Assembly: GCA_964457855.1 (NCBI GenBank)
Contig: CAYWEO010000005.1
Span: 487 to 64,486, forward strand
Origin: an uncultured Opitutales bacterium
GTDB lineage: Bacteria; Verrucomicrobiota; Verrucomicrobiia; Opitutales; CAYWEO01
DNA length: 64,000 bases
Reading direction: 5' to 3'
Position numbers and translations under genes: made by a program. The notes below the pieces were generated by a model. It saw only the letters and a program-made list of their open reading frames with translations. It was not told where the DNA came from and did not search any database. The stretch's first letter is position 1. Each line of letters starts with the position of its first letter. Positions 1-58,434 of the stretch are shown here, one piece after another.

Positions 1-66
1 CCCCGATGAGGTTACCCCCATACCTGATTTCGAGTCAGGCGCATTCGGCCACTCTGCCATCTCTCC
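1..66 (-). tRNA. tRNA-Ser(CGA), 5' part only (3' part lies left of the window)
   Basis: Reverse complement reads GGAGAGA TG GCAG... The anticodon stem is CCTGA/TCAGG with loop CTCGAAA (anticodon CGA), followed by the start of a long variable arm. Confidence 0.8.
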
Positions 67-71
67 ATGTT

Positions 72-229
72 GGAAAGCTTTGATTTTGAGCGGCGAGTTC
101 GTTGCGCATCGGATCTCGCTGCCATCACGTACGTTAGTACGCTCAGGCATTGGGGGATTAGAGTGAGGAGAGGCACTCACTCCAATCGTCCTCGCGCGCC
201 TGCTCGTCATCTCAAAATCAAAGCTTTCC
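72..229 (+). repeat. PE-A palindromic element (long variant)
   Basis: Arms GAGCGGCGAGTTCGTTGCGC and CGCGCGCCTGCTCGTCATCTCAAAA plus core ACGTACGTTAGTACGCTC are shared with the other copies. Inverted flanks are GGAAAGCTTTGATTTTGAG / CTCAAAATCAAAGCTTTCC. Confidence 0.85.
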
Positions 230-316
230 TTTCGGAAATTCCAAGAAAAGAACTCTCCCCGCAAATCGCCAGGAAGGCATCGGTTTCAAGAAATTTTTAA
301 AAGAACTTTTTCCCGC

Positions 317-459
317 AAATCGCCAGGAAGGGGTTTATTTTGAGATGATAGGCAGGAATGGAAAGATTTTGACCCCCGAGCGTACTTAACGTACGTGACG
401 GGGTCGAAATCTTTCTGTGACGAACCTAGCGCTCAAAATGAACCCCTTCCTGGCGATTT
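317..459 (-). repeat. PE-A palindromic element abutting tRNA-Ser(GCU)
   Basis: Carries TTTTGAGATGATAGGCAGG ... GAGCGTACTTAACGTACGTGA ... CGAACCTAGCGCTCAAAA. Inverted flanks are AAATCGCCAGGAAGGGG / CCCCTTCCTGGCGATTT. Confidence 0.85.
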
Positions 460-552
460 TGGCGGAGAGGGGGGGATTTGAACCCCCGGAGCCTCTTTTG
501 GAAGCTCGCCTCGTTAGCAATGAGGTGCTTTCGGCCACTCAGCCACCTCTCC
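460..552 (-). tRNA. tRNA-Ser(GCU), type II with long variable arm, CCA encoded
   Basis: Reverse complement is GGAGAGGTGGCTGAGTGGCCGAAAGCACCTCATTGCTAACGAGG...GGTTCAAATCCCCCCCTCTCCGCCA. The anticodon loop TTGCTAA gives GCT. Confidence 0.9.
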
Positions 553-756
553 GTCTATCAATACCATAAACAAGTATCAGAACTCCCACTAAACCGTCAA
601 GAACAAGTTAACAAAAAAGATGGCATCAGTTTTTTTCTCGCCTGCCCGTCATCTCAATATCGATGCCTTCCTGGCGATTTGCGGGAAGAGTTTTAAAAGA
701 ATCTTGCTCTTAACAGATATCAACTGATAACTTTAACAATCATCAAGGCGCGTATA

Positions 757-1110
757 ATGGAACCGTTAGAAAGTGTTATTAAAATATATGGTCAGGCTTT
801 AAAGGATAATGATTATCAAACGATCATTAGCCTGTTTTCTGAAGATGCGAAGGTCTTCTCTCTCTTTGCAGGTGAAAAATCACCATCGGTTTTTTTTCAA
901 AATTTGTTTGAATGTAGTCATCGAACTAAAGTCGAAATAAAAAACATATTTTTTGACCCACATGATGAAAAAATAGCAGCCGCCTACATTTATATGGAGG
1001 CAATGAGGAATCAGCACGTTATTCAAGCTGAAGCTGTCGATGTTTTCAAGTTCGATCACGAAAATAAAATTAAACGCTTAAAAATATTTTTAGACACGTA
1101 TCTCCGATAA
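757..1110 (+). CDS. small NTF2/SnoaL-like fold protein (117 aa)
   Basis: The size and pattern (IKIYGQALKDNDYQTIISLFSEDAKV ... AAAYIYMEA ... VDVFKFDHENKIKRLKIF) are typical of SnoaL/ketosteroid-isomerase-like proteins. No closer assignment is possible. Confidence 0.5.
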   Translation: MEPLESVIKIYGQALKDNDYQTIISLFSEDAKVFSLFAGEKSPSVFFQNLFECSHRTKVEIKNIFFDPHDEKIAAAYIYMEAMRNQHVIQAEAVDVFKFDHENKIKRLKIFLDTYLR

Positions 1111-1177
1111 GGAAATTAAAAGAAAAATCAGCAAATCCCTGACGAAAAGTCGTCAAAAGAGGGCAAAAAGAAATTAA

Positions 1178-1300
1178 AGAAAGAAGAAAAAAGCCGTTAA
1201 AAAGCAACTAAAAGGAGAAAGAAGAAAAGAGAAAGACATTAAAAAGAAAGACATTAAAAAGAAAGACGGAAACGAGAAGGAAAATAAGAACGAAGAATAA
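1178..1300 (+). pseudogene. ATG-less relic of the K/E-rich 3' tail of a GKFW-family paralog
   Basis: The frame reads ..KKKAVKKQLKGERRKEKDIKKKDIKKKDGNEKENKNEE*. Its last about 30 nt and the downstream TGATCG...AAAACAGCAGTCGCGAGATTGCTGTTTTTT match the 3' ends of genes 1428..2915 and 32206..34002. Confidence 0.4.
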
Positions 1301-1328
1301 AAGAACTGATCGCAGAATACTTTCATCT

Positions 1329-1359
1329 AAAAACAGCAGTCGCGAGATTGCTGTTTTTT
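1329..1359 (+). terminator. conserved intrinsic terminator of the GKFW-family cassette
   Basis: Hairpin AAAACAGCA-gtcgcgagat-TGCTGTTTT followed by a T-run. The identical sequence occurs at 2944, 4540 and (reverse) 32146. Confidence 0.75.
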
Positions 1360-1427
1360 GTTGACACGCGCAAAATCTTTCCAAAACTGGCAATCATACA
1401 ACAATTCAACCCTCTTAAACTAATCGT
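1360..1427 (+). promoter_or_regulatory. conserved promoter/5'UTR cassette of the GKFW family
   Basis: GTTGACA...GGCAATCATACAACAATTCAACCCTCTTAAACTAATCGT lies directly before the ATG. It is near-identical at 2975..3043 and (reverse) 32077..32145. The exact -10 box and TSS were not determined. Confidence 0.45.
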
Positions 1428-2915
1428 ATGCGAACAAAACTATTCAAACAAACAGGCATCTTCTGCCTAGCCCTCGCCACCGCCCTATCGGCATTTGGCA
1501 TGAAAAAACAGAACAACACTTCATGCTCCCAAGACAGTTTCTTGAACGCCATTTCTGAAAAGAAAGAACCCAATCAAAAAACTCGCAAGTATTTCATTAA
1601 AACTAAAAAAATACTCGAAGAAAACGATAAGCCGTTGGAGGCTGCAATTATCGACGAAACCGAAACCGAACCACTGCTCATTCTCATTGGCAAATTTTGG
1701 TTAAATCCGAAATTAGAGGGGCAAACATTTAAGAACATCACTCGCCTGAAAATCCTTCCAGAAAACTGTGATACTCTAAAGAAGTATACTGACGTATTCG
1801 AAGCCTACACGAATGAATGCAATGATTTATTCGAAAAAGACCAATACAAATGCATCCCTAAGGACGATGGGATTTTTAACAGCGAAGACGTGAAAAGTAT
1901 TTCTAAACTCTTCCCAAACTTGAAAATTCTTAACATATTTTATTGGAATGCCCCAGTGACGATACCTGCTTGGTGCGCCAGTATCAAAAATTATTTGATT
2001 GAACAAGGACTTAAAGAAATTTACATCAATGCTCAGCAATTGGATACTGCCGACCAAAAATATGTCTTCAATGCGCTAAATAAACGTAGCGATGGGATCA
2101 AGGTAGGCTTTTTAAGTTCAAGTCTTTCCAAATCCAAGCTAAACGACCTAGGACCATTAGGAAGAAACAAACAAATAAATAGTCATTGCTATAACAAAGA
2201 AAAGGCTGAAAAAATTGGGCGAAAAAAACTTGAAAAGAAAGGAATTACGACAGAGGTATTTAAATATGACAGTAAGAGGTCAGAGAACATACCATCGCTT
2301 AAGGCAAAAACCGAATACGAGGACTATTGTTGGGCGGCTATGGAACAATGTGGGTCAGATAAGGTATTGGCACTGTCAGGAAAATTTTGGCTTCTCCCAA
2401 AATTCTCAAGCGTACAGTTCAAAAACATCACACGTGTTGCATCTTTGCCGCACTGTCAAGCATTTGATGACTCACTACTCGACTCCCGTTACATCCCGGA
2501 AGATGACTGCCAGTTTACATCCTCTGACGCGAATAAAATTCGGCAACTCTTCCCAAACTTGAGATCCGAAAATCTCAAATTACTAGGTAAATGGAAGTTC
2601 ACCGAGACAGAGCAGATGCTCTGGATGATACCCTGGATGAACCAAGAATCTGAGGGTTCTTCTAATCAAACATTACAAGCATTAACGACGAATCATTCAA
2701 TCCAAGACAGCGAAAATCCATCGGTAAAATTCCTTTCTAAAGCTGAGAAAAAAAAGCTGCAGAAAGCCGCAAAGAAAGAACACAAAAAGATTGTGAACAA
2801 AATGATAGCGATAGAGGAGACTAGTCAGAAGGAGAATAACGAGAAAGAAATTGAAATTAAAAAGCAGCCAAACAATAAGGAAAACGAAACGAAAAACGAA
2901 GAACAAAAGAAGTGA
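1428..2915 (+). CDS. secreted two-module 'GKFW/DDG/LFPNL' repeat protein with K/E tail (paralog 1)
   Basis: Signal peptide MRTKLFKQTGIFCLALATALSAFG|MK. Two internal copies of the module GKFWLxPK..FKNIT..IP(K/E)DDxxFxSxDxxxIxxLFPNL. The tail ends ..EKEIEIKKQPNNKENETKNEEQKK. Confidence 0.8.
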   Translation: MRTKLFKQTGIFCLALATALSAFGMKKQNNTSCSQDSFLNAISEKKEPNQKTRKYFIKTKKILEENDKPLEAAIIDETETEPLLILIGKFWLNPKLEGQTFKNITRLKILPENCDTLKKYTDVFEAYTNECNDLFEKDQYKCIPKDDGIFNSEDVKSISKLFPNLKILNIFYWNAPVTIPAWCASIKNYLIEQGLKEIYINAQQLDTADQKYVFNALNKRSDGIKVGFLSSSLSKSKLNDLGPLGRNKQINSHCYNKEKAEKIGRKKLEKKGITTEVFKYDSKRSENIPSLKAKTEYEDYCWAAMEQCGSDKVLALSGKFWLLPKFSSVQFKNITRVASLPHCQAFDDSLLDSRYIPEDDCQFTSSDANKIRQLFPNLRSENLKLLGKWKFTETEQMLWMIPWMNQESEGSSNQTLQALTTNHSIQDSENPSVKFLSKAEKKKLQKAAKKEHKKIVNKMIAIEETSQKENNEKEIEIKKQPNNKENETKNEEQKK

Positions 2916-2943
2916 TCGAAAAATCTCTTCAATCCTCTTACCT

Positions 2944-2974
2944 AAAAACAGCAGTCGCGAGATTGCTGTTTTTT
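2944..2974 (+). terminator. conserved cassette terminator
   Basis: Same hairpin and T-run as 1329..1359. Confidence 0.75.
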
Positions 2975-3043
2975 GTTGACATGAGAAAAATCTTTCTACA
3001 ATTTGGCAATCATAAAACAATTCAACCCTCTTAAACTAATCGT
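2975..3043 (+). promoter_or_regulatory. conserved promoter/5'UTR cassette
   Basis: TTGACATGAGAAAAATCTTTCTACAATTTGGCAATCATAAAACAATTCAACCCTCTTAAACTAATCGT. Virtually identical to the reverse complement of 32077..32145. Confidence 0.45.
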
Positions 3044-4501
3044 ATGCGAACAAAACTATTCAAACAAGCAGGCATTTTCTGCTTAGCTCTCGCCACCGCC
3101 CTATCGGCGTTTGGCATGGAAAATCAGAAGAAAACTTCGTGCTCTTCTTCCAAACAAGACAACTTCTTGAACGTATTTTCTGAGAAGAAAAAACCCAATA
3201 AAAAAACTGTCAAATATTTCAATAAAACTGCACTCATACTCGAAGAAAACAATAAACCGCTGGAGGTTGCAATTCTAGGCGAATCCCCTCCACCGGTTAT
3301 TGTTGTTGGCAAATTTTGGTTAAATCCGAAATTAGAGGGAAAAACATTTGAAAACATTACGGAGCTGAACGTCCTTCCCAACGATAGTGATGTCTTGAAG
3401 GAATATGCCGACTTGCTTAAAAAACATGACTACAAATACATGCCTAAAGACGATGGAATTTTTAACAGCGAAGACGTGGAAAGCATTTCTAACATCTTCA
3501 AAAACCTAAAAATTCTTAACATAGCTCATTGGGGTATTCCAGAGAATCAAGTTGGTTGGTGCGCCAGCATCAAAAAGCATCTGATCAAACGGGGACTTGA
3601 AAAACTTTGCATCAATGGTCAACAATTGGGTTCTGAAGGCAAAGCGTGGATCTTCGAGAATCTCGCAAAAAACAACAAGAACAGCAAGTTTTACGTATGC
3701 TTTCTTGTTCCATCTGACTCCACATCCAACCAAGACAACGTTAAAATCCCAGAAAGTAGACTCTCAGTAGCAAGCCCTAGTTTCATTAGCAAAAAAAAGA
3801 CTGAAAAGCTGGCGATGAGAAACTTTAACAATAAAGGAATGGTGCTAGGAACAACTACGCTTGACATGGGCAAATCAATGAACCAATCGCCACTTAACGT
3901 CAGTAAAACTGACTATGCAGATCAATGCTGGTCGATCATTGAACAATGTAAGCCAGGAGAGACATTGGCATTGCCAGGCAAATTTTGGAAGATGAAAAAG
4001 TTTTCCAATGTGATGTTTATAAATATCACTCATTTTATGTCTACGTCAGGCAACAACAGGATTAAAGACTCACCACTTGATCCCCGTTGCATCCCGGACG
4101 ATGACGGCCTATTCACACCCTCTGACGCAAATGACATTCAAAGACTCTTCCCCAACTTGAAGTTAACAACAAATGTCACATTAACTGGGTGGAAGCTCGA
4201 TGAGTTGGCATTTAAACCTTGGATTTCCCAACAACTCAAAGAAGAATCTGAGCGTTCTTCTAATCAAACGCTAACGGGAAGCAATCTAGCACTAACCATC
4301 CAAAAGGGCGACGAAAATTCATCTGTAAAAGTCCTAGCTAAGTCCGAAAGAAGCAAGCTGAAGAAAAAGAAGCGCAACCTAGACAAAAAATTAGCCAAAG
4401 AAATCAAAGAGCAAGAAAAACAAGCCATTGAGGAGCAGAATAAAAAAGAGGAAGAAATTAAAAAATACCCAAGCAATAAAGAAAGCGAGAACGAGAATTA
4501 A
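3044..4501 (+). CDS. secreted two-module GKFW-family protein (paralog 2)
   Basis: Signal peptide MRTKLFKQAGIFCLALATALSAFG|ME. Modules GKFWLNPKLEGKTFENIT..MPKDDGIFNSEDVESISNIFKNLKILNI and GKFWKMKKFSNVMFINIT..IPDDDGLFTPSDANDIQRLFPNLK. Tail ..KKEEEIKKYPSNKESENEN. Confidence 0.8.
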   Translation: MRTKLFKQAGIFCLALATALSAFGMENQKKTSCSSSKQDNFLNVFSEKKKPNKKTVKYFNKTALILEENNKPLEVAILGESPPPVIVVGKFWLNPKLEGKTFENITELNVLPNDSDVLKEYADLLKKHDYKYMPKDDGIFNSEDVESISNIFKNLKILNIAHWGIPENQVGWCASIKKHLIKRGLEKLCINGQQLGSEGKAWIFENLAKNNKNSKFYVCFLVPSDSTSNQDNVKIPESRLSVASPSFISKKKTEKLAMRNFNNKGMVLGTTTLDMGKSMNQSPLNVSKTDYADQCWSIIEQCKPGETLALPGKFWKMKKFSNVMFINITHFMSTSGNNRIKDSPLDPRCIPDDDGLFTPSDANDIQRLFPNLKLTTNVTLTGWKLDELAFKPWISQQLKEESERSSNQTLTGSNLALTIQKGDENSSVKVLAKSERSKLKKKKRNLDKKLAKEIKEQEKQAIEEQNKKEEEIKKYPSNKESENEN

Positions 4502-4539
4502 AACAAATCATTAAAAAATCTCTTCAGTTCTCTTACCCG

Positions 4540-4569
4540 AAAACAGCAGTCGCGAGATTGCTGTTTTTT
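4540..4569 (+). terminator. conserved cassette terminator (no promoter follows)
   Basis: AAAACAGCAGTCGCGAGATTGCTGTTTTTT. Confidence 0.75.
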
Positions 4570-4698
4570 GTTGCCTGAATTATGGGAACACCGTCAGAAT
4601 TGCAAAGCCTCTACCCTGAACTGAAAGCAAAACAAACCACGGGAATCCCAGACAACAGAACAACTTCTGTTCGTCATGCGCAATGCTTGCCTCTCGCT

Positions 4699-7944: not shown

Positions 7945-8079
7945 ACGCCGTAGCGATTTCGAGCGCTAGGGTTCCGTTACAGAAAAATTTTAACCCCTTA
8001 CGTATTTCAATACGCTCGGGGATTAAAATTTTTCTGTAGCCGTCCCTATCATCTCGAACTTGCTACGGCGTCTAACAAA
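7937..8079 (+). repeat. PE-A element; its inverted flanks include the glgC stop
   Basis: CATTTGTTAGACGCCGTAGC-GATTTCGAGCGCTAGGGTTCCGTTAC...ACGTATTTCAATACGCTC...GTAGCCGTCCCTATCATCTCGAAC-TTGCTACGGCGTCTAACAAATG. Confidence 0.9.
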
Positions 8080-14738: not shown

Positions 14739-14903
14739 GGAGAGAGTGTTTTTTGCAAAAAACACCCCCTCCAAACCTCCCCCAAAAAAATTTTTATTCG
14801 GAAGGCATTTTTGAGGCACGTAGTGCCACAAAAATGCCTTCCGATGTGCTTTTCTTTGAAGGGCCCGGGAAACTTTCTTTTCTTCGAAAAGAAAGTTTCC
14901 CGG
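14739..14903 (+). repeat. 3HP element, complete (modules A, B, C)
   Basis: A is GGAGAGAGTGTTTTTTGCAAAAAACACCCCCTCC. B is CGGAAGGCATTTTTGAGGCACGTAGTGCCACAAAAATGCCTTCCG. C is CCCGGGAAACTTTCTTTTCTTCGAAAAGAAAGTTTCCCGG. Confidence 0.9.
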
Positions 14904-28600: not shown

Positions 28601-28705
28601 GGCGGGGGTGTTTTTTGCAAAAAGCACCCCCGCCGGACCTCCCCCTTAAAAACTCTCGTTCGGAAGGCATTTTTGTGGTACTCCGTGCCCCAAAAATGCC
28701 TTCCG
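28601..28705 (+). repeat. 3HP modules A and B (module C displaced to 28914)
   Basis: GGCGGGGGTGTTTTTTGCAAAAAGCACCCCCGCC and CGGAAGGCATTTTTGTGGTACTCCGTGCCCCAAAAATGCCTTCCG. Confidence 0.9.
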
Positions 28706-28707
28706 AT

Positions 28708-28845
28708 GTAGGCGGCGTAGCGATTTCGAGCGCTAGGGTTCCGTTACAGGAAAATTTCAACCCCGCTTACGTACGTTAGTACGCTCGGGGGTTAAAATTT
28801 TTCTGTAGTCGTCCCTATCATCTCGAACTTGCTACGCCGCCCCAC
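28708..28845 (+). repeat. PE-A element inserted between 3HP modules B and C
   Basis: GTAGGCGGCGTAGC-GATTTCGAGCGCTAGGGTTCCGTTAC...ACGTACGTTAGTACGCTC...CCCTATCATCTCGAAC-TTGCTACGCCGCCCCAC. Confidence 0.9.
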
Positions 28846-28999: not shown

Positions 29000-30202
29000 C
29001 TAGCCGTTAAAAATGTTTGCACATACAAGGCGTGGTTCGAGGGCCGTCTGGCGTTTCTCGAATTCGCGAAATCCTTCCGCAATCAACGCGTCAATTAACT
29101 CCGCAAACTTCACCTCCGGTTGCGCACGCTCCCAGAGGTAATAGGCTAGAGAACCAGGCAATGGATTCACCTCATTCAGCCAAATTTCTCCCGTCTTCGT
29201 ATCGCTTAAAAAGTCAATCCGAGGACTCCCAACACTCTCCAAATTCGTGAAAATGGACGTTGCCATATCGCGAATCTTTTGTGCCATTTCCGGAGACAAA
29301 TTTTTTGGGCAAATTTCTCTCGATGCACCGGCCATTCCCTGCGCATGGGAGGCCGACAACTTAGAATCCGCGTTACCTTCAGCCAAATATTTGTCCTTGA
29401 AATCCAAAATCTCACCCTTCCTTAACGGCCGCTCAATGGCGGACAAGCGAACATCGCCGAAAGCCCTCGTAATCGCTACGTTATACTCCTCCAAAGACTC
29501 AATAAACGGCTCCACGAGAGCCTCAAAATCCATACGGAAAATCGTCAGCAAGGCCGCCTCAAGCTCCTTGGCATCCTCCACGCGATACACTCCAATGCTA
29601 CTCCCTAAATGACAAGGTTTTGCGCACAGAGGAAACCGCCCACCAAACGCCCGCACAATCGCGTCAACATCCTGCGCACCACGAAATTGCGTCTTCGCAA
29701 TCACTTTATCCGGCAAAACATTGATGCCAAGGCCGCGACACCACCGTTTCGTCAGCACTTTGTTCATGAAGACAGCGGATTCCGTCAACCGACAGCCCGT
29801 ATGCGGAATTTGCATCGCCTCGAAAACCCCCTGCATCGCCCCATCTTCCCCCAAATTCCCGTGAAAGGCCACAAAAGCGCAGTCAAATGGCAACTCCTGT
29901 TTCCCAAGACCAAAACGCGAGCGGATTCTCAATTCCGGCTCCAAACTGGGATTGCCAAAGGGAAGTTCTACACGCGACAGGCTGGATTTCACTTTCTGCG
30001 AAAGGTAGTAATTCTTCCGATTCAACAACGCATCTCCCGTCCAGCAAACGCTTTGCAGATCGACATAGACCGGAATCGGGATGTACTTTGCGTAATCCAT
30101 CGCCTCGATCACTTGCAGACCCGTCAAAACACTAATATCGTGTTCCAAAGAAGGTCCTCCAAAAAAAACAGCTACCTTTTTTGCCCGCTTCATTTCCCTC
30201 AT
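29000..30202 (-). CDS. ddl: D-alanine--D-alanine ligase family ATP-grasp enzyme (stand-alone, 400 aa)
   Basis: Starts KKVAVFFGGPSLEHDISVLTG and ends with ATP-grasp motifs ..EIWLNEVNPLPGS.. Confidence 0.8.
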   Translation of the reverse strand: MREMKRAKKVAVFFGGPSLEHDISVLTGLQVIEAMDYAKYIPIPVYVDLQSVCWTGDALLNRKNYYLSQKVKSSLSRVELPFGNPSLEPELRIRSRFGLGKQELPFDCAFVAFHGNLGEDGAMQGVFEAMQIPHTGCRLTESAVFMNKVLTKRWCRGLGINVLPDKVIAKTQFRGAQDVDAIVRAFGGRFPLCAKPCHLGSSIGVYRVEDAKELEAALLTIFRMDFEALVEPFIESLEEYNVAITRAFGDVRLSAIERPLRKGEILDFKDKYLAEGNADSKLSASHAQGMAGASREICPKNLSPEMAQKIRDMATSIFTNLESVGSPRIDFLSDTKTGEIWLNEVNPLPGSLAYYLWERAQPEVKFAELIDALIAEGFREFEKRQTALEPRLVCANIFNG

Positions 30203-30319
30203 TTCTCAAAGACAGCAAAACATTCCCATAAAATCAATACAATTCCTCCAAAATCTCCAAAAAACACTTTACTTCCCGCTCGCTTTACGGCATCATTTTT
30301 CTCTGAATACATCTATTTT

Positions 30320-30550
30320 ATGGCTGACAAATCCAATAAAAATCCCGAAAACGTCCCCGGAAAATACTACGTCGATAGTCAATGCATCAATTGCAACCTC
30401 TGCATCGAAATCGCTCCCGATATCTTCGAAATGAGCGAAGACAACGGCTACTCCTTTGTCAAAAAACAACCCATAACCGACGACGAAATCGCTCGCGCTG
30501 ATGAGGCTTTGGAAGGTTGCCCTGTACAAGCGATCGGAAAATCCGCGTAG
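30320..30550 (+). CDS. small [4Fe-4S]/[3Fe-4S] ferredoxin (76 aa)
   Basis: KYYVDSQCINCNLCIEIAPDIF...EGCPVQAI. The rest of ORF 29609..30550 is antisense to ddl and was discarded. The TAG stop lies in a PE-A half copy. Confidence 0.8.
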   Translation: MADKSNKNPENVPGKYYVDSQCINCNLCIEIAPDIFEMSEDNGYSFVKKQPITDDEIARADEALEGCPVQAIGKSA

Positions 30551-30988
30551 GGTACGTCGATTTTGAGCATTAGGGTTCGTTCAGAAATTTTTTTAGGATC
30601 TGGACCATCAGGCAATAAAATTAGGTAGTTGGTTTTATTGTCTCGTGGTCCAGATTCAATCTTTAAACAGTGCCAACGCTGGGAAAATGTTTCCATTAAA
30701 TTCTCTATCAATCCATTTCGAAAAGATTGATCCCTTAGGCTAATGATTTCTTGATTTTTCTTCCCGCGGATCCTGTTTAATGTTGCGGATTTTCCATTGC
30801 TGAGTTGTACAGTGGTCTCGGTGCTTTCATGATATACCAAATGCATCCTCAGAGGAATATGTTAAAAGTTGATTTGAATCATTCTTTTCTTTGCCCTTCT
30901 TCCGGGTTTCTTTCATCCCAAACGCCGATAAAGCGGTGGCGAGAGCTAGGCAGAAAATGCCTGTTTGTTTGAATAGTTTTGTTTTCAT
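30448..30988 (-). pseudogene. frameshifted member of the MxTKLFKQ signal-peptide family
   Basis: ATG 30988 gives MKTKLFKQTGIFCLALATALSAFGMKETRKK.. and stops after 53 aa at 30827. The overlapping +1 frame (MHLVYHEST.., ORF 30448..30846) continues into a PE-A half copy and into the antisense of the ferredoxin gene. Confidence 0.4.
30546..30586 (+). repeat. PE-A left-arm half copy
   Basis: CGTAGGGTACGTCGATTTTGAGCATTAGGGTTCGTTCAGAA. Confidence 0.7.
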
Positions 30989-31065
30989 ATGATTTTGTGT
31001 GGTTAAATGGTTTTATGGGATCTTCGAATGATGGAATTTTTAGACGGCTGAATTCCTTTTTGATC

Positions 31066-32076
31066 TCAGTTCTTTGTTGCGTTTTCCTTTTCTTTCTTTT
31101 TTTCTTCCTTAAAGGCTTTTTTGCTTTGCTTGTGCTTCTCCTTCTTCAGCGCGCCCTTCTCCTTTTGTGAGAGTTTTTTCTTCGTGTTTTCTTTCTTTTT
31201 AGTCATTTCCAAGAGATCTTGGGGTGAAATTACAATATTTTTGCGTGTTATTGTCTCAACGGGTCTTCCCTCTTTCCTATCTTCCGCTTCGTTGACTCTG
31301 ATTTTGAGACTCTTGGATGGAGTGGTATTGGTTATAAGGTCTGATTGTGTAATTCTCTTGAGTGATTGATCGCGTGTTTCTTCACTGACGCGTAAAATAA
31401 AGGTGATTCTTGTCTGATCAGTTTTGAGATCGGCGATTGCGTTTCTTGTTGTTTTGTCGAACTTTGAGTATCCGAGCGTCAAATGATCCAGTTGCGTGAG
31501 TCCATTCATGAGCCTCTTGACGTCTTTGAATGTTAGCGACCAATCGGATATGTCGAGATCCTCAACGTTGGGAAAACCCTTGATGATGAAATTGATGGCT
31601 TTTGGTGTTAAAATATTGTTCAATTGTTCGATATTAGTGGGCGTAATGCAGAGCTTTTGAATCTTTGGTTGCGGTTTGTTGAAATCTTTGGTTTTTTTGA
31701 GCCAGGGTTTCCCGGTGATGATGAGCTCCGTTGAGCTATCGGTTGCTTTGGATGGAAGCTCATGGTTCACGATTGGGTCACTTTCCTCGGTTTTTTCTTC
31801 GTTTTTAGGTGCATTAATAAAGAGCTTTTCGTCTTCTGTTTTATTTTCCTCCTTATTCTCAATCTTGACGGATGTGTTGTTGTTTGTAAATGGATCGAAA
31901 ATAAAACTTGGTTCTGGTTCTTCTTGCTTGTCTTCAGGTTTTGTGATGTCGAATAGGTTAGAAATGTCTTCGGAGAGCTTTGTATCTAGCTCTTGATTTT
32001 TCATCCCAAACGCCGATAAAGTGGTGGCGAGAGCTAAGCAGAAGATGCCTGTTTGTTTGAATAGTTTTGTTTGCAT
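31066..32076 (-). CDS. secreted single-module family member with LRR-like C-half and K-rich tail (paralog 4)
   Basis: Signal peptide MQTKLFKQTGIFCLALATTLSAFG|MK, then ..TGKPWLKKTKDF..GFPNVEDLDISDWSL..LDHLTLGYSKF.., tail ..KKAFKEEKKKEKENATKN. Confidence 0.75.
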   Translation of the reverse strand: MQTKLFKQTGIFCLALATTLSAFGMKNQELDTKLSEDISNLFDITKPEDKQEEPEPSFIFDPFTNNNTSVKIENKEENKTEDEKLFINAPKNEEKTEESDPIVNHELPSKATDSSTELIITGKPWLKKTKDFNKPQPKIQKLCITPTNIEQLNNILTPKAINFIIKGFPNVEDLDISDWSLTFKDVKRLMNGLTQLDHLTLGYSKFDKTTRNAIADLKTDQTRITFILRVSEETRDQSLKRITQSDLITNTTPSKSLKIRVNEAEDRKEGRPVETITRKNIVISPQDLLEMTKKKENTKKKLSQKEKGALKKEKHKQSKKAFKEEKKKEKENATKN

Positions 32077-32145
32077 ACGATTAGTTTAAGAGGGTTGAAT
32101 TGTTTTATGATTGCCAAATTGTAGAAAGATTTTTCTCATGTCAAC
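32077..32145 (-). promoter_or_regulatory. conserved promoter/5'UTR cassette (reverse orientation)
   Basis: The reverse complement is nearly identical to 2975..3043. Confidence 0.45.
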
Positions 32146-32177
32146 AAAAAAACAGCAATCTCGCGACTGCTGTTTTT
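32146..32177 (-). terminator. conserved cassette terminator
   Basis: The reverse complement reads AAAAACAGCAGTCGCGAGATTGCTGTTTTTTT. Confidence 0.75.
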
Positions 32178-32205
32178 GGGTAAGAGGATCGAAGCGATTT
32201 TTCGA

Positions 32206-34002
32206 TCAGTTCTTTTGATCTTCGTTTTTATCTTCCTTCTCGTTTTCGTTCTTCTTGTTAATTTCAATTTCTTTTGCCTCCAGGTTCTTTTTAATTTCAA
32301 CTTCCTTGTCTTTTTTCTCCAATTCTTTCGGGTGCTCCTCGTTTTGTTTTAAGTCGTTTTGCGGCTTTTTGGGGAGTTTGCTGCATTCCTCTATGTCTTT
32401 CCCGCCCGATAATTCTTCCATGTGCTTATCGTGTTGTTTTAAGTCGTTTAAGAGTTTGTTGTATTTCTCCATGCATTCTTCCTTAAGTGTTTCTGGGCGC
32501 TTGTTTTGTTTGAAGTCGTTGTGCAGCTTTTGAATTCTTTGCAGCTCGTCCACGAGTTTGTCGTATTCCTCTATCTCCTTCATGAATTTAATGACTTTCT
32601 TTTCTTCCTGTTGATTTTTTACTTTTATCGCTTTGCATTGTTCTATGGTAAGATCAATAACGTATGATGTGTCATTAATGTCGAGTTTCTTAATTGTAAG
32701 CTTTGTGTTTGGTAAAGCGAGAGTTGATTCGCGTTTGATTTTTCGGCGCTGCCAATATATATACGCGTTGGCCGATTTATCGAACTCCCACGTGTTAAGG
32801 TTCAAGTGTTCTTGGGCAAAGGGTAGGTTCGGAAAGCAATTTCTTATGGCCATCAAGTCCTTAGAGGTTAATTTACCGTCATCTGCAGGGGCAGGGGTCT
32901 TCAGGTTGTCAAACCAAAGTATTAGTGGGTTTTTTTTACAGGTGTATTCGCTTGGTATGGACTCAACCTCTTTAATCATTGGGAATTGGTATTTAGAAAT
33001 GTTTGGAATGAGCCAAAATTTCCCGCGCATCAGTAATGGTGATCTTTTTGATTCTAATTTATCATCTTGTTTGATTTTTTTAGTAGCTTCTAGGCAGGAT
33101 TGTTTTTGGATGGCGTCTAAACAACATTCTTCATAGGCTTTTTTGTTGAATTCTATAGTATGATTGGTGTCTGCAGGACTATATTTAGAGAGTACAGTTC
33201 CTTGTTTATCTAAGAGCTTCCTGTCTGCTTTCTTCAATTTACTTTCAGTTAGCTTATTTGAGAATAAGCCGCCAGACAATCCGAGTGTATCGATAACTTC
33301 CTTGCGAGCAGGTATCAATATCTCGCAATTGTTGTTACGGCAAGTTTTCATTATTATTCGGATATCTTTCTTTTCACACTCATGCAGGTAAAGTTTTTTT
33401 AATGAACTTTTTAGCAAGATTTTCTTAACCTGTGTGCACCATTCAAAGAGTTTGTTAAGTGGCAGATCCCAACTCACCACATTAAGTTCTTGTAGTTCTG
33501 GAAAGATGTCCACAAGGTGATCAAAGTCCTCTGCGTAAAGAATTCCGTCATCGGGTGGAATGGCAATGGATAACAATTCGTTTGCAGGGTCAATTTCTTG
33601 TAATGTCTTTTTATTGCGTACAATAGTAAGTTTTGTGATATGCTTGTATTTTATTTTTTTCCAGTCGCCATACTTCCAGAAGTTTCCCCCAAGTGTGGTC
33701 CAGCAATGCACGCTCGTAGGGGGAGCTAGTTCTGATGCGTTTTGTTCCAGTTTGGCGTTTTGTTCATCACTTGCCTTAAGGATGTTTTTAGAGCTTTTAA
33801 CATACTTGTTTTTCTTGTTTTTGGAAAAGCTTCCATCGTCTTTCTCATTTAAAAACGTTTTGTTGAGTATTTCATTGAGACATTCCTCGTTTTTTTTGTT
33901 TTGCCCTTTCATGCCAAAGGTTGGTGATAGAACGAGAAAGGCTGCGTAAAACGCGCTAGCCTTTGTGAGGTTTTTTAGAAGGTTATATTTCGACGTATAC
34001 AT
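32206..34002 (-). CDS. secreted two-module GKFW-family protein with long K/E tail (paralog 3)
   Basis: ..KASAFYAAFLVLSPTFG|MKGQ. Modules GGNFWKYG..IPPDDGILYAEDFDHLVDIFPELQELNV and RGKFWLIPN..APADDGKLTSKDLMAIRNCFPNL. Tail ..KEVEIKKNLEAKEIEINKKNENEKEDKNEDQKN. ATG 34002 preferred over TTG 34050. Confidence 0.75.
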   Translation of the reverse strand: MYTSKYNLLKNLTKASAFYAAFLVLSPTFGMKGQNKKNEECLNEILNKTFLNEKDDGSFSKNKKNKYVKSSKNILKASDEQNAKLEQNASELAPPTSVHCWTTLGGNFWKYGDWKKIKYKHITKLTIVRNKKTLQEIDPANELLSIAIPPDDGILYAEDFDHLVDIFPELQELNVVSWDLPLNKLFEWCTQVKKILLKSSLKKLYLHECEKKDIRIIMKTCRNNNCEILIPARKEVIDTLGLSGGLFSNKLTESKLKKADRKLLDKQGTVLSKYSPADTNHTIEFNKKAYEECCLDAIQKQSCLEATKKIKQDDKLESKRSPLLMRGKFWLIPNISKYQFPMIKEVESIPSEYTCKKNPLILWFDNLKTPAPADDGKLTSKDLMAIRNCFPNLPFAQEHLNLNTWEFDKSANAYIYWQRRKIKRESTLALPNTKLTIKKLDINDTSYVIDLTIEQCKAIKVKNQQEEKKVIKFMKEIEEYDKLVDELQRIQKLHNDFKQNKRPETLKEECMEKYNKLLNDLKQHDKHMEELSGGKDIEECSKLPKKPQNDLKQNEEHPKELEKKDKEVEIKKNLEAKEIEINKKNENEKEDKNEDQKN

Positions 34003-34166
34003 AAAGTTTTTAATGAGGTTAAAATTGTGTGAATTAATCTTAGGCGTCAAGCAGTTTTTGCTTTATTTTGAGTTTTTGCGCGATGATTACACAGGGTTGT
34101 GAATTGCCTCGCCAAATAGAAAAAACTTGCACTTTCCAAATGCGTGCGTACATTTAATTGCGGAAA

Positions 34167-34239
<73 letters not shown>

Positions 34240-34245
34240 CTCTCG

Positions 34246-34502: not shown

Positions 34503-34511
34503 CTTAAAGTT

Positions 34512-34619
34512 CGGAAGGCATTTTTATGGCACTACGTGCCATAAAAATGCCTTCCGATATGACTTTTCTTTGAAAGGTCCGGAAAACTTTTCTTTTCTTC
34601 TGAAAAGAAACTTTTCCGA
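34512..34619 (+). repeat. 3HP modules B and C
   Basis: CGGAAGGCATTTTTATGGCACTACGTGCCATAAAAATGCCTTCCG and TCCGGAAAACTTTTCTTTTCTTCTGAAAAGAAACTTTTCCGA. Confidence 0.9.
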
Positions 34620-45585: not shown

Positions 45586-46677
45586 ATGAAAATAATATCT
45601 AAATTAACAAAATGCGCGCTACCTGTAGCGCTTTTAACCGCTGGGGCGATATCGGCGTCCTGGTGTGATGATGCCAGAGCTTATACGTCACTTTCTACGA
45701 GCGATCCATTTAAGTGGAACAACACTTCTGATGTTTCTAGCATTGGAAAGGACATTGAGTTGTATAAACTTACGAATAGTGAGCCTACAGTGCAGCAATT
45801 GATCGTGACGGGAAACAATAAAGTTTCGCAGAAAGAATTGGAAAACGTGCAGAAATTGCTGCCAAGTGTGCAGGACATTTCTTTTTTTAATTGTCCAAAG
45901 CTAGGAAGTAAGCATCTTCTTGGATGGAATAACCTGCGTTCTATCATGTTCAATGGGTGTCCAAAGATAGATGATCGTACGGCGGCCTATATAGCCTTTA
46001 AGTACGGGTGGACTTTAGAGTCGATTTTTGTGGATGGAACGAAAATTACAATGGAGGGCCTAAAGTGGATCGCTGAGCATTGCACAAATGTGAAAGACGT
46101 GCACATAGGGAACTTGCTGAAAAATGATGGCGATTTGGAAACGATCCTTAATGCATTTAACAAAATGGAATGCCTATCATTATCTGGCTTAAAGAAGACT
46201 GTGTCATTCAATCTTGACGAGGTTTACCGTAATGTGCATTTCATAAGCCTTGAATCTTGCGATGTAGACGATGACGCTGTTGTTAATATGTGTGCACGCT
46301 TCCCGGATTCACAGGTCATTACTTTCCGAGGCTGTCCGATAACAGACGAGGCTGTAACAACGATCATGCAGGAATTGAACGTGGAGTGCATTTCCTTTGA
46401 TGACTGCAAGAGCATCACTAACAAGGCCTTGAGTAATATTGCTATGAATTTAAAATCCAGCCTTAAGCGAGTCTGTGTGAAAGGGGCTACTCAAATTACA
46501 CAAGAGGCTGCCGCTTCTTTGAAATCAATCAATATTGAATTTATTCCTGCCGACACTAAAATTAACACATCCAGAAGCGTGAACCAGAACATTGAAAATA
46601 GTGACAATGGTAACTTCTCGAATAGTAAAATCGAAAACAAGGAAATCGAAATTAAGAAAAATGATAATAAGAAATAA
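45586..46677 (+). CDS. secreted CC-type LRR protein, paralog 3
   Basis: MKIISKLTKCALPVALLTAGAISA|SW, then ..CPKIDDRTAAYIAFKYGWTLESIFVDGTKITMEGL.., ends ..ENKEIEIKKNDNKK*. Confidence 0.8.
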   Translation: MKIISKLTKCALPVALLTAGAISASWCDDARAYTSLSTSDPFKWNNTSDVSSIGKDIELYKLTNSEPTVQQLIVTGNNKVSQKELENVQKLLPSVQDISFFNCPKLGSKHLLGWNNLRSIMFNGCPKIDDRTAAYIAFKYGWTLESIFVDGTKITMEGLKWIAEHCTNVKDVHIGNLLKNDGDLETILNAFNKMECLSLSGLKKTVSFNLDEVYRNVHFISLESCDVDDDAVVNMCARFPDSQVITFRGCPITDEAVTTIMQELNVECISFDDCKSITNKALSNIAMNLKSSLKRVCVKGATQITQEAAASLKSINIEFIPADTKINTSRSVNQNIENSDNGNFSNSKIENKEIEIKKNDNKK

Positions 46678-55491: not shown

Positions 55492-55595
55492 ACGACGTAA
55501 ACATAAAACATCCCCAGGCCTTTTTCAACAAAATTCTGGAGGGAGGCGAGAAGTGAGTAAGGGTTGGCGAATATAGGGTGCGAGGCCATTCCATT

Positions 55596-55703
55596 GCAGG
55601 CTTTGTCTCCAATGCCTAACGGCATTGGTGAACCGACGGTGGGTTCCGCATCCCTAACGATGGATTTTTCGTTCAAAAACTTGGTTGCAGGGGCGGGATT
55701 TGA
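55596..55703. repeat. 108-bp direct repeat copy 1 (includes a duplicated 3' end of tRNA-fMet)
   Basis: GCAGGCTTTGTCTCCAATGCCTAACGGCATTGG...AAACTTGGTTGCAGGGGCGGGATTTGA is repeated 154 bp to the right. Confidence 0.9.
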
Positions 55704-55749
55704 TTCGGACTCGCAAGCGAGTCTCTCACCCCTACGGGGCAAAGCCTTA

Positions 55750-55857
55750 GCAGGCTTTGTCTCCAATGCCTAACGGCATTGGTGAACCGACGGTGGGTTC
55801 CGCATCCCTAACGATGGATTTTTCGTTCAAAAACTTGGTTGCAGGGGCGGGATTTGA
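55750..55857. repeat. 108-bp direct repeat copy 2 (overlaps the real tRNA-fMet 3' end)
   Basis: Reads the same as 55596..55703 by eye. Confidence 0.9.
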
Positions 55858-55912
55858 ACCCACGGCCTTCAGGTTATGAGCCTGACGAGCTACCAGACTG
55901 CTCCACCCTGCG
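55836..55912 (-). tRNA. initiator tRNA-fMet(CAU), CCA encoded
   Basis: The reverse complement CGCAGGGTGGAGCAGTCTGGTAGCTCGTCAGGCTCATAACCTGAAGGCCGTGGGTTCAAATCCCGCCCCTGCAACCA has the C1xA72 mismatch and is very close to E. coli tRNA-fMet. Confidence 0.9.
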
Positions 55913-56012: not shown

Positions 56013-56579
56013 ATGCCTACACATAAAGAGCCTCGCAAGTGGAAATGTGAAAAGGAAGAACTTGTTTTCAGTTGCCACGTCTATTCGATTTATAAACGGT
56101 TTTACCGCCATCCCGACGGCCGCCAGGGGGATTTTTTTACCGCCAAATGTCACGATTGGGTTCAAGTCATTCCGTTGACTGCTAATAATGAGCTCGTTAT
56201 GGTCCGGCAATATCGCTTCGGCATCGGTGACTTGTCTTGGGAATTTCCAGGCGGCGTACTCAATCCCGGAGAAGACGCTTTAGTCGGCGGCATGCGAGAG
56301 CTTGAGGAGGAAACGGGTTTTTGCGGAGAAAATCCCAAGATTCTCGGCAAATTGCACCCTAATCCTGCCCTGCAGAGCAATACCGTTCATTTTATGCTGC
56401 TTGAAAACTGCCGGCAGGTGAAGCCAATCAATTGGGATGAATTTGAAGAGCTCCAAGTCAAAACGTTTCCCATAAAGGACGTCATGAAGATGGTCGAAAA
56501 TGGCGAAATTAGCCATGGCATCACAGTTAATGCCCTCTTCTACCTTCTGATGATGCGCCGTGGCGATTTCGAGCGCTAG
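56013..56579 (+). CDS. NUDIX hydrolase (ADP-ribose pyrophosphatase-like)
   Basis: Nudix box GGVLNPGEDALVGGMRELEEETGF. The last residues ..GDFER* and the stop are encoded by PE-A. Confidence 0.85.
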   Translation: MPTHKEPRKWKCEKEELVFSCHVYSIYKRFYRHPDGRQGDFFTAKCHDWVQVIPLTANNELVMVRQYRFGIGDLSWEFPGGVLNPGEDALVGGMRELEEETGFCGENPKILGKLHPNPALQSNTVHFMLLENCRQVKPINWDEFEELQVKTFPIKDVMKMVENGEISHGITVNALFYLLMMRRGDFER

Positions 56580-56689
56580 GGTTCCGTTACAAGAAAATTT
56601 CAACCCCTTACGTACGTTAGTACGCTCGGGGTTGAAATTTCCTCGTAGCCGTCCCTATCATCTCGAACTTGCCACGGCGCATCATCAGA
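56546..56689 (+). repeat. PE-A element whose 19-nt inverted flank is NUDIX coding sequence
   Basis: TCTGATGATGCGCCGTGGC-GATTTCGAGCGCTAGGGTTCCGTTAC...ACGTACGTTAGTACGCTC...CCCTATCATCTCGAAC-TTGCCACGGCGCATCATCAGA. Confidence 0.9.
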
Positions 56690-57037: not shown

Positions 57038-57991
57038 TTACTTACTGTAGTCATCTAAGGGCGCTGGGCTTAAAAGTATTGGGTTTGGGTTCACCCACTT
57101 CCTAAAACCATCGCTCTGCTTTCCACCTCCAGTTATTTGTGGTGTACATCCATTCCATCTATTCTTACCATTCTCAGTGTATTTCTTGCAGCGCTTAATA
57201 AGATGTATCATCTTACCGTTGTTTGGATCCCTGGTGATAAAATCCCTGAATATCTTAGAAGCATTTTCCCATCCCGTCGCAACATGACCTGAATTTATGC
57301 AGCCTTCCCAAACCTTTTGCAACTCTTTCTCCGCAACTTCAGTCTGGTAAAGGCCTAAAGAAGTCAGTTTTTGACACCCTGCTAACTGAATGATTGTTTT
57401 AAGATCTTGACAACAAACAGCCGAAAACTCCTTTAAATTGGCAAACTCCTCCACTCCACTGATGTTATCAATATTTGTGAAGCTCACATCAAGTCCTTCT
57501 AGATTTGGAAGCGAAGGGGGATGTAAAAAGTCAAGATTTTTGATGTTTTGGCAAAATTCGAACGAAATCTTTAAGATATTTCCCCCAAATAGCTCTATGA
57601 GCCAAAAGTCTTTGTTGAAAATGGCTTTTAATTGACTCTCAGTGACTTCCCTAGGAAATTTCAGTGCATATCCTTGCTTGAGGAAATAGAGTAGTTTCGG
57701 GATGGCACCGTCTAAATCTTGCTTTTCAAGCGAAGAAAAATAAGCGAGCAATTGATCCAACCAGATTTTTTTGCAAATCCCTATGCAACCCTCAAAAGTT
57801 TCAGGGATCTCTGCCTCAAAAATATTGGGAAATGGATTCTCTGTTCCCATTTTGTTATCGAACGGTGGTTTTCCTGAGCCTCCCCCGCCTGGCAGATCAT
57901 TCTTCATCCCATACGTTGAGCCAAGCCCAGCGGATAACGTTAACGCCGCTACCAGCGCGCATTTCGTTAAATTGGATCCTATTTTAATCAT
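57038..57991 (-). CDS. secreted LRR protein (internalin-like 22-residue repeats)
   Basis: MIKIGSNLTKCALVAALTLSAGLGSTYG|MKND, then ..LPNLEGLDVSFTNIDNISGVEEFANLKEFSAVCCQDLKTIIQLAGCQKLTSLGLYQTEV. Confidence 0.75.
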   Translation of the reverse strand: MIKIGSNLTKCALVAALTLSAGLGSTYGMKNDLPGGGGSGKPPFDNKMGTENPFPNIFEAEIPETFEGCIGICKKIWLDQLLAYFSSLEKQDLDGAIPKLLYFLKQGYALKFPREVTESQLKAIFNKDFWLIELFGGNILKISFEFCQNIKNLDFLHPPSLPNLEGLDVSFTNIDNISGVEEFANLKEFSAVCCQDLKTIIQLAGCQKLTSLGLYQTEVAEKELQKVWEGCINSGHVATGWENASKIFRDFITRDPNNGKMIHLIKRCKKYTENGKNRWNGCTPQITGGGKQSDGFRKWVNPNPILLSPAPLDDYSK

Positions 57992-58288: not shown

Positions 58289-58434
58289 AAACCGCTTCAG
58301 AAAACATCGATTTCGAGATGATAGGGACGGCTACAAAAAAATTTTAACCCTGAGCGTACTAACGTACGTGATGGGTTAAAATTTTCTTGTAACGGAACCC
58401 TAGCGCTCGAAAGCGGCGCTTTCTGAAGCGGTTT
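58289..58434 (-). repeat. PE-A element abutting the tmRNA 3' end
   Basis: Flanks AAACCGCTTCAGAAA / TTTCTGAAGCGGTTT. Carries GATTTCGAGATGATAGGGACGGCTAC...GAGCGTACTAACGTACGTGA...GTAACGGAACCCTAGCGCTCGAAA. Confidence 0.9.

Follow-up and report, generated by a model that had tools for sequence, protein, structure and literature searches.

Within the 64,000-nucleotide stretch analysed here (the window; positions 487 to 64,486 of contig CAYWEO010000005.1, assembly GCA_964457855.1, from an uncultured Opitutales bacterium), we read a group of minus-strand genes at 30448-34050, with moderate confidence, as a short tandem array of secreted-protein genes, the second of a pair that lie in opposite orientations and are confined to one lineage. 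The genes of the plus-strand array at the left end of the window are called A1 and A2, and those of the second array B1, B2 and B3, the last being a stub; A0 is a gene tail that precedes A1. The genes of both arrays are joined by cassettes that run from the end of one gene to the signal peptide of the next. General homologous recombination would break the locus and rejoin it at these cassettes. Its products would be tandem duplicates (A1/A2), tail-only (A0) and leader-only (B3) relics, probably one deletion variant and possibly a ~30.8-kb inversion between the terminator blocks at 1329-1359 and 32147-32177. The most economical mechanism is homologous recombination, presumably of the RecA type, acting on short tracts of identity.

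Anatomy and conservation of the junction cassette

Alignment of all copies gave a cassette of ~280 nt with a fixed order, in which the upstream gene contributes its K/E-rich C-terminal codons and stop, followed by a ~25-nt spacer, a hairpin with a U tract, a promoter-like region (TTGACA, 15 nt, TACAAT), a ~45-nt 5' untranslated region (5'UTR), and an ATG plus 26 signal-peptide codons. The hairpin is AAAAACAGCAGUC-GCGA-GAUUGCUGUUUUU followed by the U tract (RNA fold -19.6 kcal/mol, z -2.9), and the core of this block, terminator X, is present in four exact copies against zero expected by chance. A region of the TTGACA...TACAAT type lies upstream of each of A1, A2 and B2; the B2 version carries the variants 7-T, TGAGA and TACAAT, and the bases specific to the A0 tail are TTTCATCT. 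The promoter and the terminator are putative assignments read from the sequence: consensus scanners flagged neither in the cassette, the 15-nt spacer lying outside the scanner's 16-18 nt range.

The cassettes of the two arrays are inverted repeats of one another. A repeat finder paired 2969-3126 with 31994-32151 (158 nt, 95%) and 2871-2974 with 32147-32250 (88%), and when one T-tract indel was allowed the two inverted blocks merged to ~284 columns of 90.5% identity. Between the regions upstream of A2 and B2 the longest perfect run is 79 nt (2969-3047), with further runs of 25-31, 21 and 19 nt; the regions upstream of A1 and B2 have perfect runs of 31, 32 and 34 nt. These values bear out the inverted cassette pair (32002-32177 and 2944-3117) that had been pointed out in an earlier note on this DNA.

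Identity between the A2 and B2 units is 81, 98 and 83% across the first 300 nt and then falls to ~50%, the level of unrelated sequence, and the bodies of the two genes cannot be aligned. Within the conserved part the non-coding segment is perfect over 79 nt versus ~90% identity in the signal-peptide codons. Selection on the protein alone does not account for non-coding DNA that is better conserved than the codons of the signal peptide, and the pattern points to recent conversion or duplication. That the cassette is far more conserved than the bodies indicates, at the level of sequence comparison, concerted evolution by gene conversion or unequal crossing-over rather than protein-level selection alone. 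The same pattern argues against a rival account that we consider possible although rather doubtful. In that account the arrays are static and hold old paralogs whose leader, promoter and terminator are under purifying selection, the two non-reference junctions described below are chimeras, and the GC-skew minimum at 30.5 kb is a replication origin that adjoins the array by chance.

The earlier note had described three minus-strand open reading frames (ORFs) with a common leader in the second array, and both their coordinates and their leaders were borne out by the ORF list and by alignment. The leaders read MxTKLFKQ..AFGMK, with the variant MYTSKYNLL..TFGMK in B1. Over the 26 residues of the leader (MxTKLFKQxGIFCLALATxLSAFGM) B2 and B3 are 92-96% identical to A1, and B1 is divergent. 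The A and B leaders are predicted to be classical signal peptides of the signal peptidase I (SPase-I) type, and the proteins would accordingly be exported. A lipoprotein reading was rejected, as the residues preceding the leader cysteine form no lipobox.

Members and relics of the arrays

B1 aligns with A1 and A2 at 27% identity over ~460 aa (tblastn E 1e-25), and both copies of a ~100-aa domain (GKFW...IPxDDG...FPNL...W) are aligned, as in A1 and A2. By these sequence criteria B1 is a true paralog of A1 and A2; an alternative upstream TTG start at 34050 is possible. Its K/E-rich tail carries motifs of the KEIEIKK type (KEVEIKK and KEIEINK) and is followed by terminator X. The tail of B2 is K/E-rich and has neither the KEIEIKK motif nor terminator X, and B3 likewise has neither. 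In a six-frame translation of the window, KEIEIKK or its variants (KEEEIKK, KEVEIKK, KEIEINK) were found only at the extreme C-termini of A1, A2, B1 (twice) and three further genes, C1-C3, which stand in tandem and are otherwise unrelated to the A/B genes; the sites lie at 42980-46677 (+), 2844-2864, 4445 and 32254-32307. The motif may be a common C-terminal tag or sorting signal.

For B2 the BLAST match to A1 and A2 was confined to the first ~37 aa. A full-length hidden Markov model (HMM) built without B2 gave no match to the B2 body at E<=10. With an HMM of the six domain copies B2 was the top non-member at a non-significant E of 0.6, and hhalign gave P 4.7e-4 over 66 columns, covering one shortened domain from which the IPxDDG core is missing (P 0.15 for the unrelated control C2). 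B2 is best described as a cassette plus at most one remote, degenerate domain of the family. The earlier assignment of all three ORFs to the same family is solid for B1 only; B2 has the cassette and at most a marginal domain in common with A1 and A2, and B3 the leader alone.

B3 stops after 53 aa, and a second frame, open from ~30864 to 30448, runs on into a half copy of a palindromic intergenic element and into the antisense of the ferredoxin gene, as had been described; a single indel within ~35 nt could join this frame to the stub. The last 175 nt of this 'continuation' ORF are made up of the degenerate palindromic-element half and ferredoxin antisense. A tblastn search with B3 matched the family at aa 1-26 only, the family profile had no match in any of the six frames across 30450-30990, and the codon-usage score of the 'continuation' was ~0 versus +0.24 to +0.40 for B1 and B2. 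A simple frameshift in a family gene, which is how the earlier note had explained B3, was rejected on these grounds, as no downstream frame resembles the family. On its sequence, B3 is instead a relic in which a copy of the leader runs into unrelated, decaying and 3'-truncated sequence. The stranded leader copy lacks both terminator and promoter.

The B3 stop at 30827-30829 was also covered by assemblies from three further datasets, a Joint Genome Institute (JGI) contig, L071 (33047-29767), and two Logan contigs, L075 (32067-30774) and L079 (29892-30853), all of which are 100% identical to the window. An assembly error at 30820-30850, considered in the earlier note, is unlikely since the site is identical in the assemblies of other datasets, which speaks against an artefact peculiar to the deposited assembly. 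A fourth contig, L078 (Logan; 29542-30803), is identical to the window and covers only the ORF downstream of the stop. L075 and L078 come from the same run and end at 30774 and 30803, respectively, so that they overlap by exactly 30 nt, which is k-1. This overlap suggests that the assembly graph of that run branches inside the 'continuation', where a sequence variant may hence be present.

The inner edge of the B array was located by comparison with a ~92%-identical relative, contig L072 (JGI 3300077323), which is collinear with the window through rplM, ddl and the ferredoxin gene. In L072 a full palindromic element, beginning 18 bases past the ferredoxin stop, replaces the B3 region, after which the contig ends (L072:1-270 against window 30551-30700). 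Since the half copy and B3 of the window correspond to a full element in L072, the inner edge of the array lies at ~30568, inside a mobile-looking element.

Signs of turnover are thus found at both arrays: the A0 tail has no gene, the B3 leader has no body, and domain number varies between members. The A0 tail, the promoterless end of A2 and the bodiless B3 leader are the leftovers expected from unequal crossing-over or deletion at the cassettes. Static arrays do not account for them, since tail-only and leader-only relics require past recombination. The birth-and-death turnover proposed in the earlier note is supported by the two relics, by the domain-number differences and by the deletion-type junction described in the next section.

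Table 1 Window coordinates of the array genes, cassettes, relics and flanking features
Feature	Position	Strand	Description and evidence
A0 relic	1176..1300	+	K/E-rich 3' tail (...EKDIKKKDIKKKDGNEKENKNEE*), no gene body; terminator X follows at 1329-1359
Cassette upstream of A1	1242..1510	+	left partner of both non-reference junctions (L074 at 1329-1359; L073 at 1400-1451)
A1	1428..2915	+	495 aa; two domains
A1/A2 junction cassette	2844..3126	+	inverted partner of 31994-32276
A2	3044..4501	+	485 aa; two domains; 48% identity to A1
A2 tail and terminator X	4460..4573	+	core 4542-4565; no promoter after; end of left array
Ferredoxin gene	30320..30550	+	76 aa; Pfam Fer4_13 E 5.5e-22; convergent with B array
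'Continuation' ORF	30448..30846	-	5' 220 nt of unassigned origin, neutral coding score; remainder palindromic-element half copy and ferredoxin antisense
Palindromic intergenic element, degenerate half copy	30556..30625 (approx.)	.	marks inner edge of B array
B3 stub	30827..30988	-	53-aa ORF; cassette signal peptide and 27 unrelated residues
Stranded partial cassette copy	30911..30994	-	ATG region and signal-peptide codons; direct repeat, 84 nt 94% to 31999-32082
B2	31066..32076	-	336-aa ORF with cassette leader
B1/B2 junction cassette	31994..32276	-	B1 tail/stop to B2 signal peptide; inverted repeats, alignments
Terminator block X (AAAAACAGCAGTCGCGAGATTGCTGTTTTTT)	32147..32177	-	putative; 13-bp stem, GCGA loop, U tract; L074 crossover site
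B1	32206..34002	-	598 aa; tblastn E 1e-25 to A1; alignments; tail motif
tRNA-Met	34167..34240	+	outer boundary of B array
Palindromic elements, first set (among others)	14797-14881, 20644-20728, 28659-28743, 34510-34594, 38455-38539	both orientations	repeat finder
Palindromic elements, second set (among others)	7946-8070, 25643-25769, 28713-28839, 56556-56679, 58300-58415	both orientations	repeat finder

Junction contigs, GC skew and the orientation of the intervening segment

Among the contigs from other datasets, three extend across a cassette: L071 and L073 (both JGI 3300045131) and L074 (Logan, SRR35365923). L071 has the arrangement of the window itself, in which the B1 tail leads through the terminator to the promoter and body of B2, and is 100% identical to it. 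L073 consists of window 8-1451 joined to 3016-3469 with an overlap of 52 nt, the longest run common to the A1 and A2 cassettes. This is a deletion-type junction in which A1 is lost and the A1 leader is placed directly onto the A2 body, and both halves are 100% identical to the window. L073 also confirms the window adjacency of the A0 tail, the terminator and the A1-specific promoter. L074 consists of window 571-1359 joined to 32177-31521, again with both halves 100% identical, and its overlap is the 31-nt terminator block. The junction is of the inversion type, the left flank being joined to the promoter and body of B2, as expected if 1360-32146 were inverted. We infer that these junctions reflect real molecules, and put the probability that L073, L074 or both are real at between about one half and two thirds. 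Recombination between the arrays, which the earlier note had put forward, is plausible; L074 has an inversion-type junction and the GC skew also reverses at the B array, but an overlap equal to the k used in assembly is no proof. The site is also not the repeat pair named there (2944-3117 and 32002-32177), as the L074 junction uses the terminator blocks at 1329-1359 and 32147-32177 instead.

The orientation of the segment between the arrays also bears on GC skew. The cumulative skew has a sharp, V-shaped minimum at 30494, inside the ferredoxin gene. Both GC skew and GC skew at third codon positions (GC3 skew), taken on the plus strand for genes of both orientations, are negative from 4.7 to 30.5 kb and positive from 31 to 56 kb. 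As the third-position skew has the same sign in both gene orientations, the asymmetry is strand-based, as replication produces. The minimum marks either a replication origin or one border of a block that was inverted recently. Inverting 1360-32146 would give a uniformly positive skew from 1.4 to 56 kb, a reading limited at its left boundary by a left flank of just 1.4 kb and by family genes that carry their own skew whatever their orientation. No dnaA or dnaN was found among the window ORFs scanned, and DnaA boxes, scored with the E. coli consensus only, numbered 12 near-consensus sites versus 11.95 expected in the window, with one near the minimum and no cluster. About 70% of the gene length to the left of the minimum is head-on to the implied fork direction. 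Gene orientation relative to skew was considered as a discriminator between origin and inversion and was dropped, since the two are tied together within the segment whichever way round it lies.

Several of these observations, and some others, weigh against a locus that recombines at its cassettes. Logan contigs were assembled with k=31 (PMC12424806), which is the length of the L074 overlap. Every 31-mer of L074 also occurs in the window, so that the k-mer graph cannot tell the two arrangements apart. Both recombinant junctions cross inside exact common runs, as de Bruijn mis-joins do, one of 31 nt and the other of 52 nt (below a k of 55). L071 and L073 back the window's own adjacency at both terminator blocks, and the window arrangement recurs in L071, L073, L075, L078 and L079. 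Selection on the promoter and signal peptide could partly account for cassette conservation, and the reversal of skew may be no more than the sign of a replication origin, which gives a V-shaped minimum. Comparative material is also thin around the array. The best matches of the neighbouring stand-alone Ddl (400 aa; 29000-30202) in 185,579 species genomes were at 45-47%, with none above 47%, and the top ones belonged to alphaproteobacterial metagenome-assembled genomes (MAGs); the only related contig, L072, ends 250 nt past the ferredoxin gene.

The exact common runs at the crossovers, the lack of a novel 31-mer in L074, the recurrence of the window arrangement and the V-shaped minimum would favour static arrays. 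However, that account must also accommodate non-reference junctions in two of the three junction-crossing contigs from other datasets, a minimum near which there is neither a DnaA-box cluster nor a dnaA among the ORFs scanned, and a left segment that is mostly head-on to the fork it implies. L074 traverses nine branch events (seven k-mer positions) of the reference k=31 graph unbroken, and a k=31 contig must lose nine alternative edges in order to turn chimeric. The start of L075, a contig from another run, is at window 32067, slightly within the leader and beyond the last common run.

A different explanation of the skew is that the window itself is mis-assembled, the assembler having flipped the segment between the cassettes, so that the real genome has the L074 arrangement and a skew that stays positive from 1.4 to 56 kb. 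Assemblers are well known to invert segments that lie between inverted repeats, inversion of 1360-32146 abolishes the skew reversal, and L074 shows the left flank, the terminator and B2 in succession. We nevertheless hold this to be quite improbable, since L071 and L073 cross the window junctions with 100% identity, although these contigs may not be independent if they come from the same project as the deposited assembly.

A bolder form of the recombination reading is that natural populations contain the ~30.8-kb segment in both orientations, with the window as a recently derived state, and that a portable module for export, made up of the cassette and the KEIEIKK tail, is placed on unrelated bodies (B2, B3 and the 43-47 kb family). 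A recently derived inverted state would explain the fully reversed GC skew, yet we think this combination unlikely. In the reading that we prefer, an inversion between the terminator blocks would not switch expression and would be no programmed switch, since every gene has its own promoter-like region and no recombinase was found among the window ORFs scanned; it would only re-orient ~26 kb of housekeeping genes.

The Vpma, Vsp and Vsa systems of Mycoplasma consist of clustered exported-protein genes in both orientations that have a conserved 5'UTR and signal peptide and divergent bodies, and inversion within the conserved 5' region has been proposed for them (PMC2268961). The A/B arrays likewise have a conserved 5'UTR and leader on divergent bodies in both orientations, which would fit programmed phase or antigenic variation of this type, with a site-specific recombinase, one expression site and alternative bodies. 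This explanation is largely refuted, and we give it almost no credence. The mycoplasma systems rely on a tyrosine recombinase encoded next to the locus (Xer1, Mbr, HvsR) and on a short specific site; they have one promoter, and their leaders are of the lipoprotein type. In contrast, no recombinase or transposase was found among the ~40 ORFs scanned in the 64-kb window (NCBIfam, Pfam), and the promoter-like region present in every cassette leaves no place for a single expression site. Moreover, the leaders are of the SPase-I type and lack a lipobox, the two candidate crossovers lie at different cassette positions rather than being site-specific, and the inverted copies are 29 kb apart with housekeeping genes enclosed.

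If recombination at the cassettes is correct, the locus is a compact natural case in which identity tracts of 31-79 nt in promoter/leader cassettes drive gene birth, gene death and multi-gene inversion in an uncultured lineage. It also carries a caution for MAGs, in that the orientation of 30 kb of housekeeping DNA, and with it a skew-based origin position, hinges on how the assembler resolved a 280-nt repeat.

Distribution, related systems and other window features

The A/B genes form an orphan family: when all 1.84 billion representative proteins were searched with its profile, A1, A2, B2 and a B1 fragment were the sole matches, and a word-indexed homolog search returned only A1 and A2. In metagenome scans neither the family alignment nor the exact sequence of the terminator block gave a match. 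Pfam has no family for any A/B member, and no leucine-rich-repeat (LRR) match was found there. AlphaFold2 models had predicted local distance difference test (pLDDT) scores of 62 and 73 and showed alternating strands and helices. In Foldseek searches of the PDB the best E values were 0.05 and 0.08, for a mixture of Rossmann-like and LRR matches, none of them significant. An LRR-like fold is suggested for the A/B proteins by the LFPNL..L.I motif alone. The proteins of this orphan family, which are predicted to be secreted, and their KEIEIKK tail are candidates for a role in host or surface interaction.

The A/B arrays are a new orphan example of an already known kind of system, the recombining multigene family. 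In Helicobacter pylori the paralogous outer-membrane protein genes babA and babB, which have conserved ends, recombine (general review, PMC4534519). Conserved 5' and 3' ends with divergent middles are common to babA/babB and the A/B genes, and in H. pylori RecA-type conversion or crossover between the loci makes chimeras and swaps bodies between promoters. BabA and BabB are well-characterised adhesins, whereas the A/B genes are a four-gene orphan family for which a chimeric protein is hypothetical.

Large chromosomal inversions arise by homologous recombination between inverted rrn operons, insertion sequences and paralogs. As in those cases, a housekeeping segment here lies between inverted repeats, and its GC skew is opposite to that of the adjoining DNA. 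The repeats involved there are usually kilobases long, whereas the perfect identity between the A and B cassettes extends over 31-79 nt within a ~280-nt cassette, and the occurrence of both orientations is putative.

Lineage-specific expansions of LRR-type effector families occur in host-associated bacteria. The A/B genes resemble these in being tandem, fast-evolving and low in GC and in having alternating beta/alpha units and the LFPNL..L.I motif, and the window holds a second such family. They differ in having no Pfam LRR match, no significant Foldseek match and classical signal peptides.

The second orphan family has its own leader, MKIISKLTKCALPVALLTAG, and consists of genes at 42980-43858, 44170-45297 and 45586-46677 (+) in tandem with conserved junctions. 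A gene at 57038-57991 (-), inverted and 10 kb away, has the leader of this family and a weak LRR_4 match, a layout like that of the A/B arrays.

The gene set of the window includes mcsA-mcsB-clpC, a Mip-like FKBP, HPr kinase, lptA/B and tonB/exbB, together with a one-piece tmRNA. At least two families of palindromic intergenic elements resembling repetitive extragenic palindromic (REP) sequences are present in many copies and both orientations, for example TTCGGAAGGCATTTTT...AAAAATGCCTTCCGA, and the public contigs of the organism tend to terminate within them. At 55581-55857 a 123-nt unit is directly repeated (95%, 154-nt spacing), and this repeat abuts or overlaps a tRNA-Met at 55836-55912.

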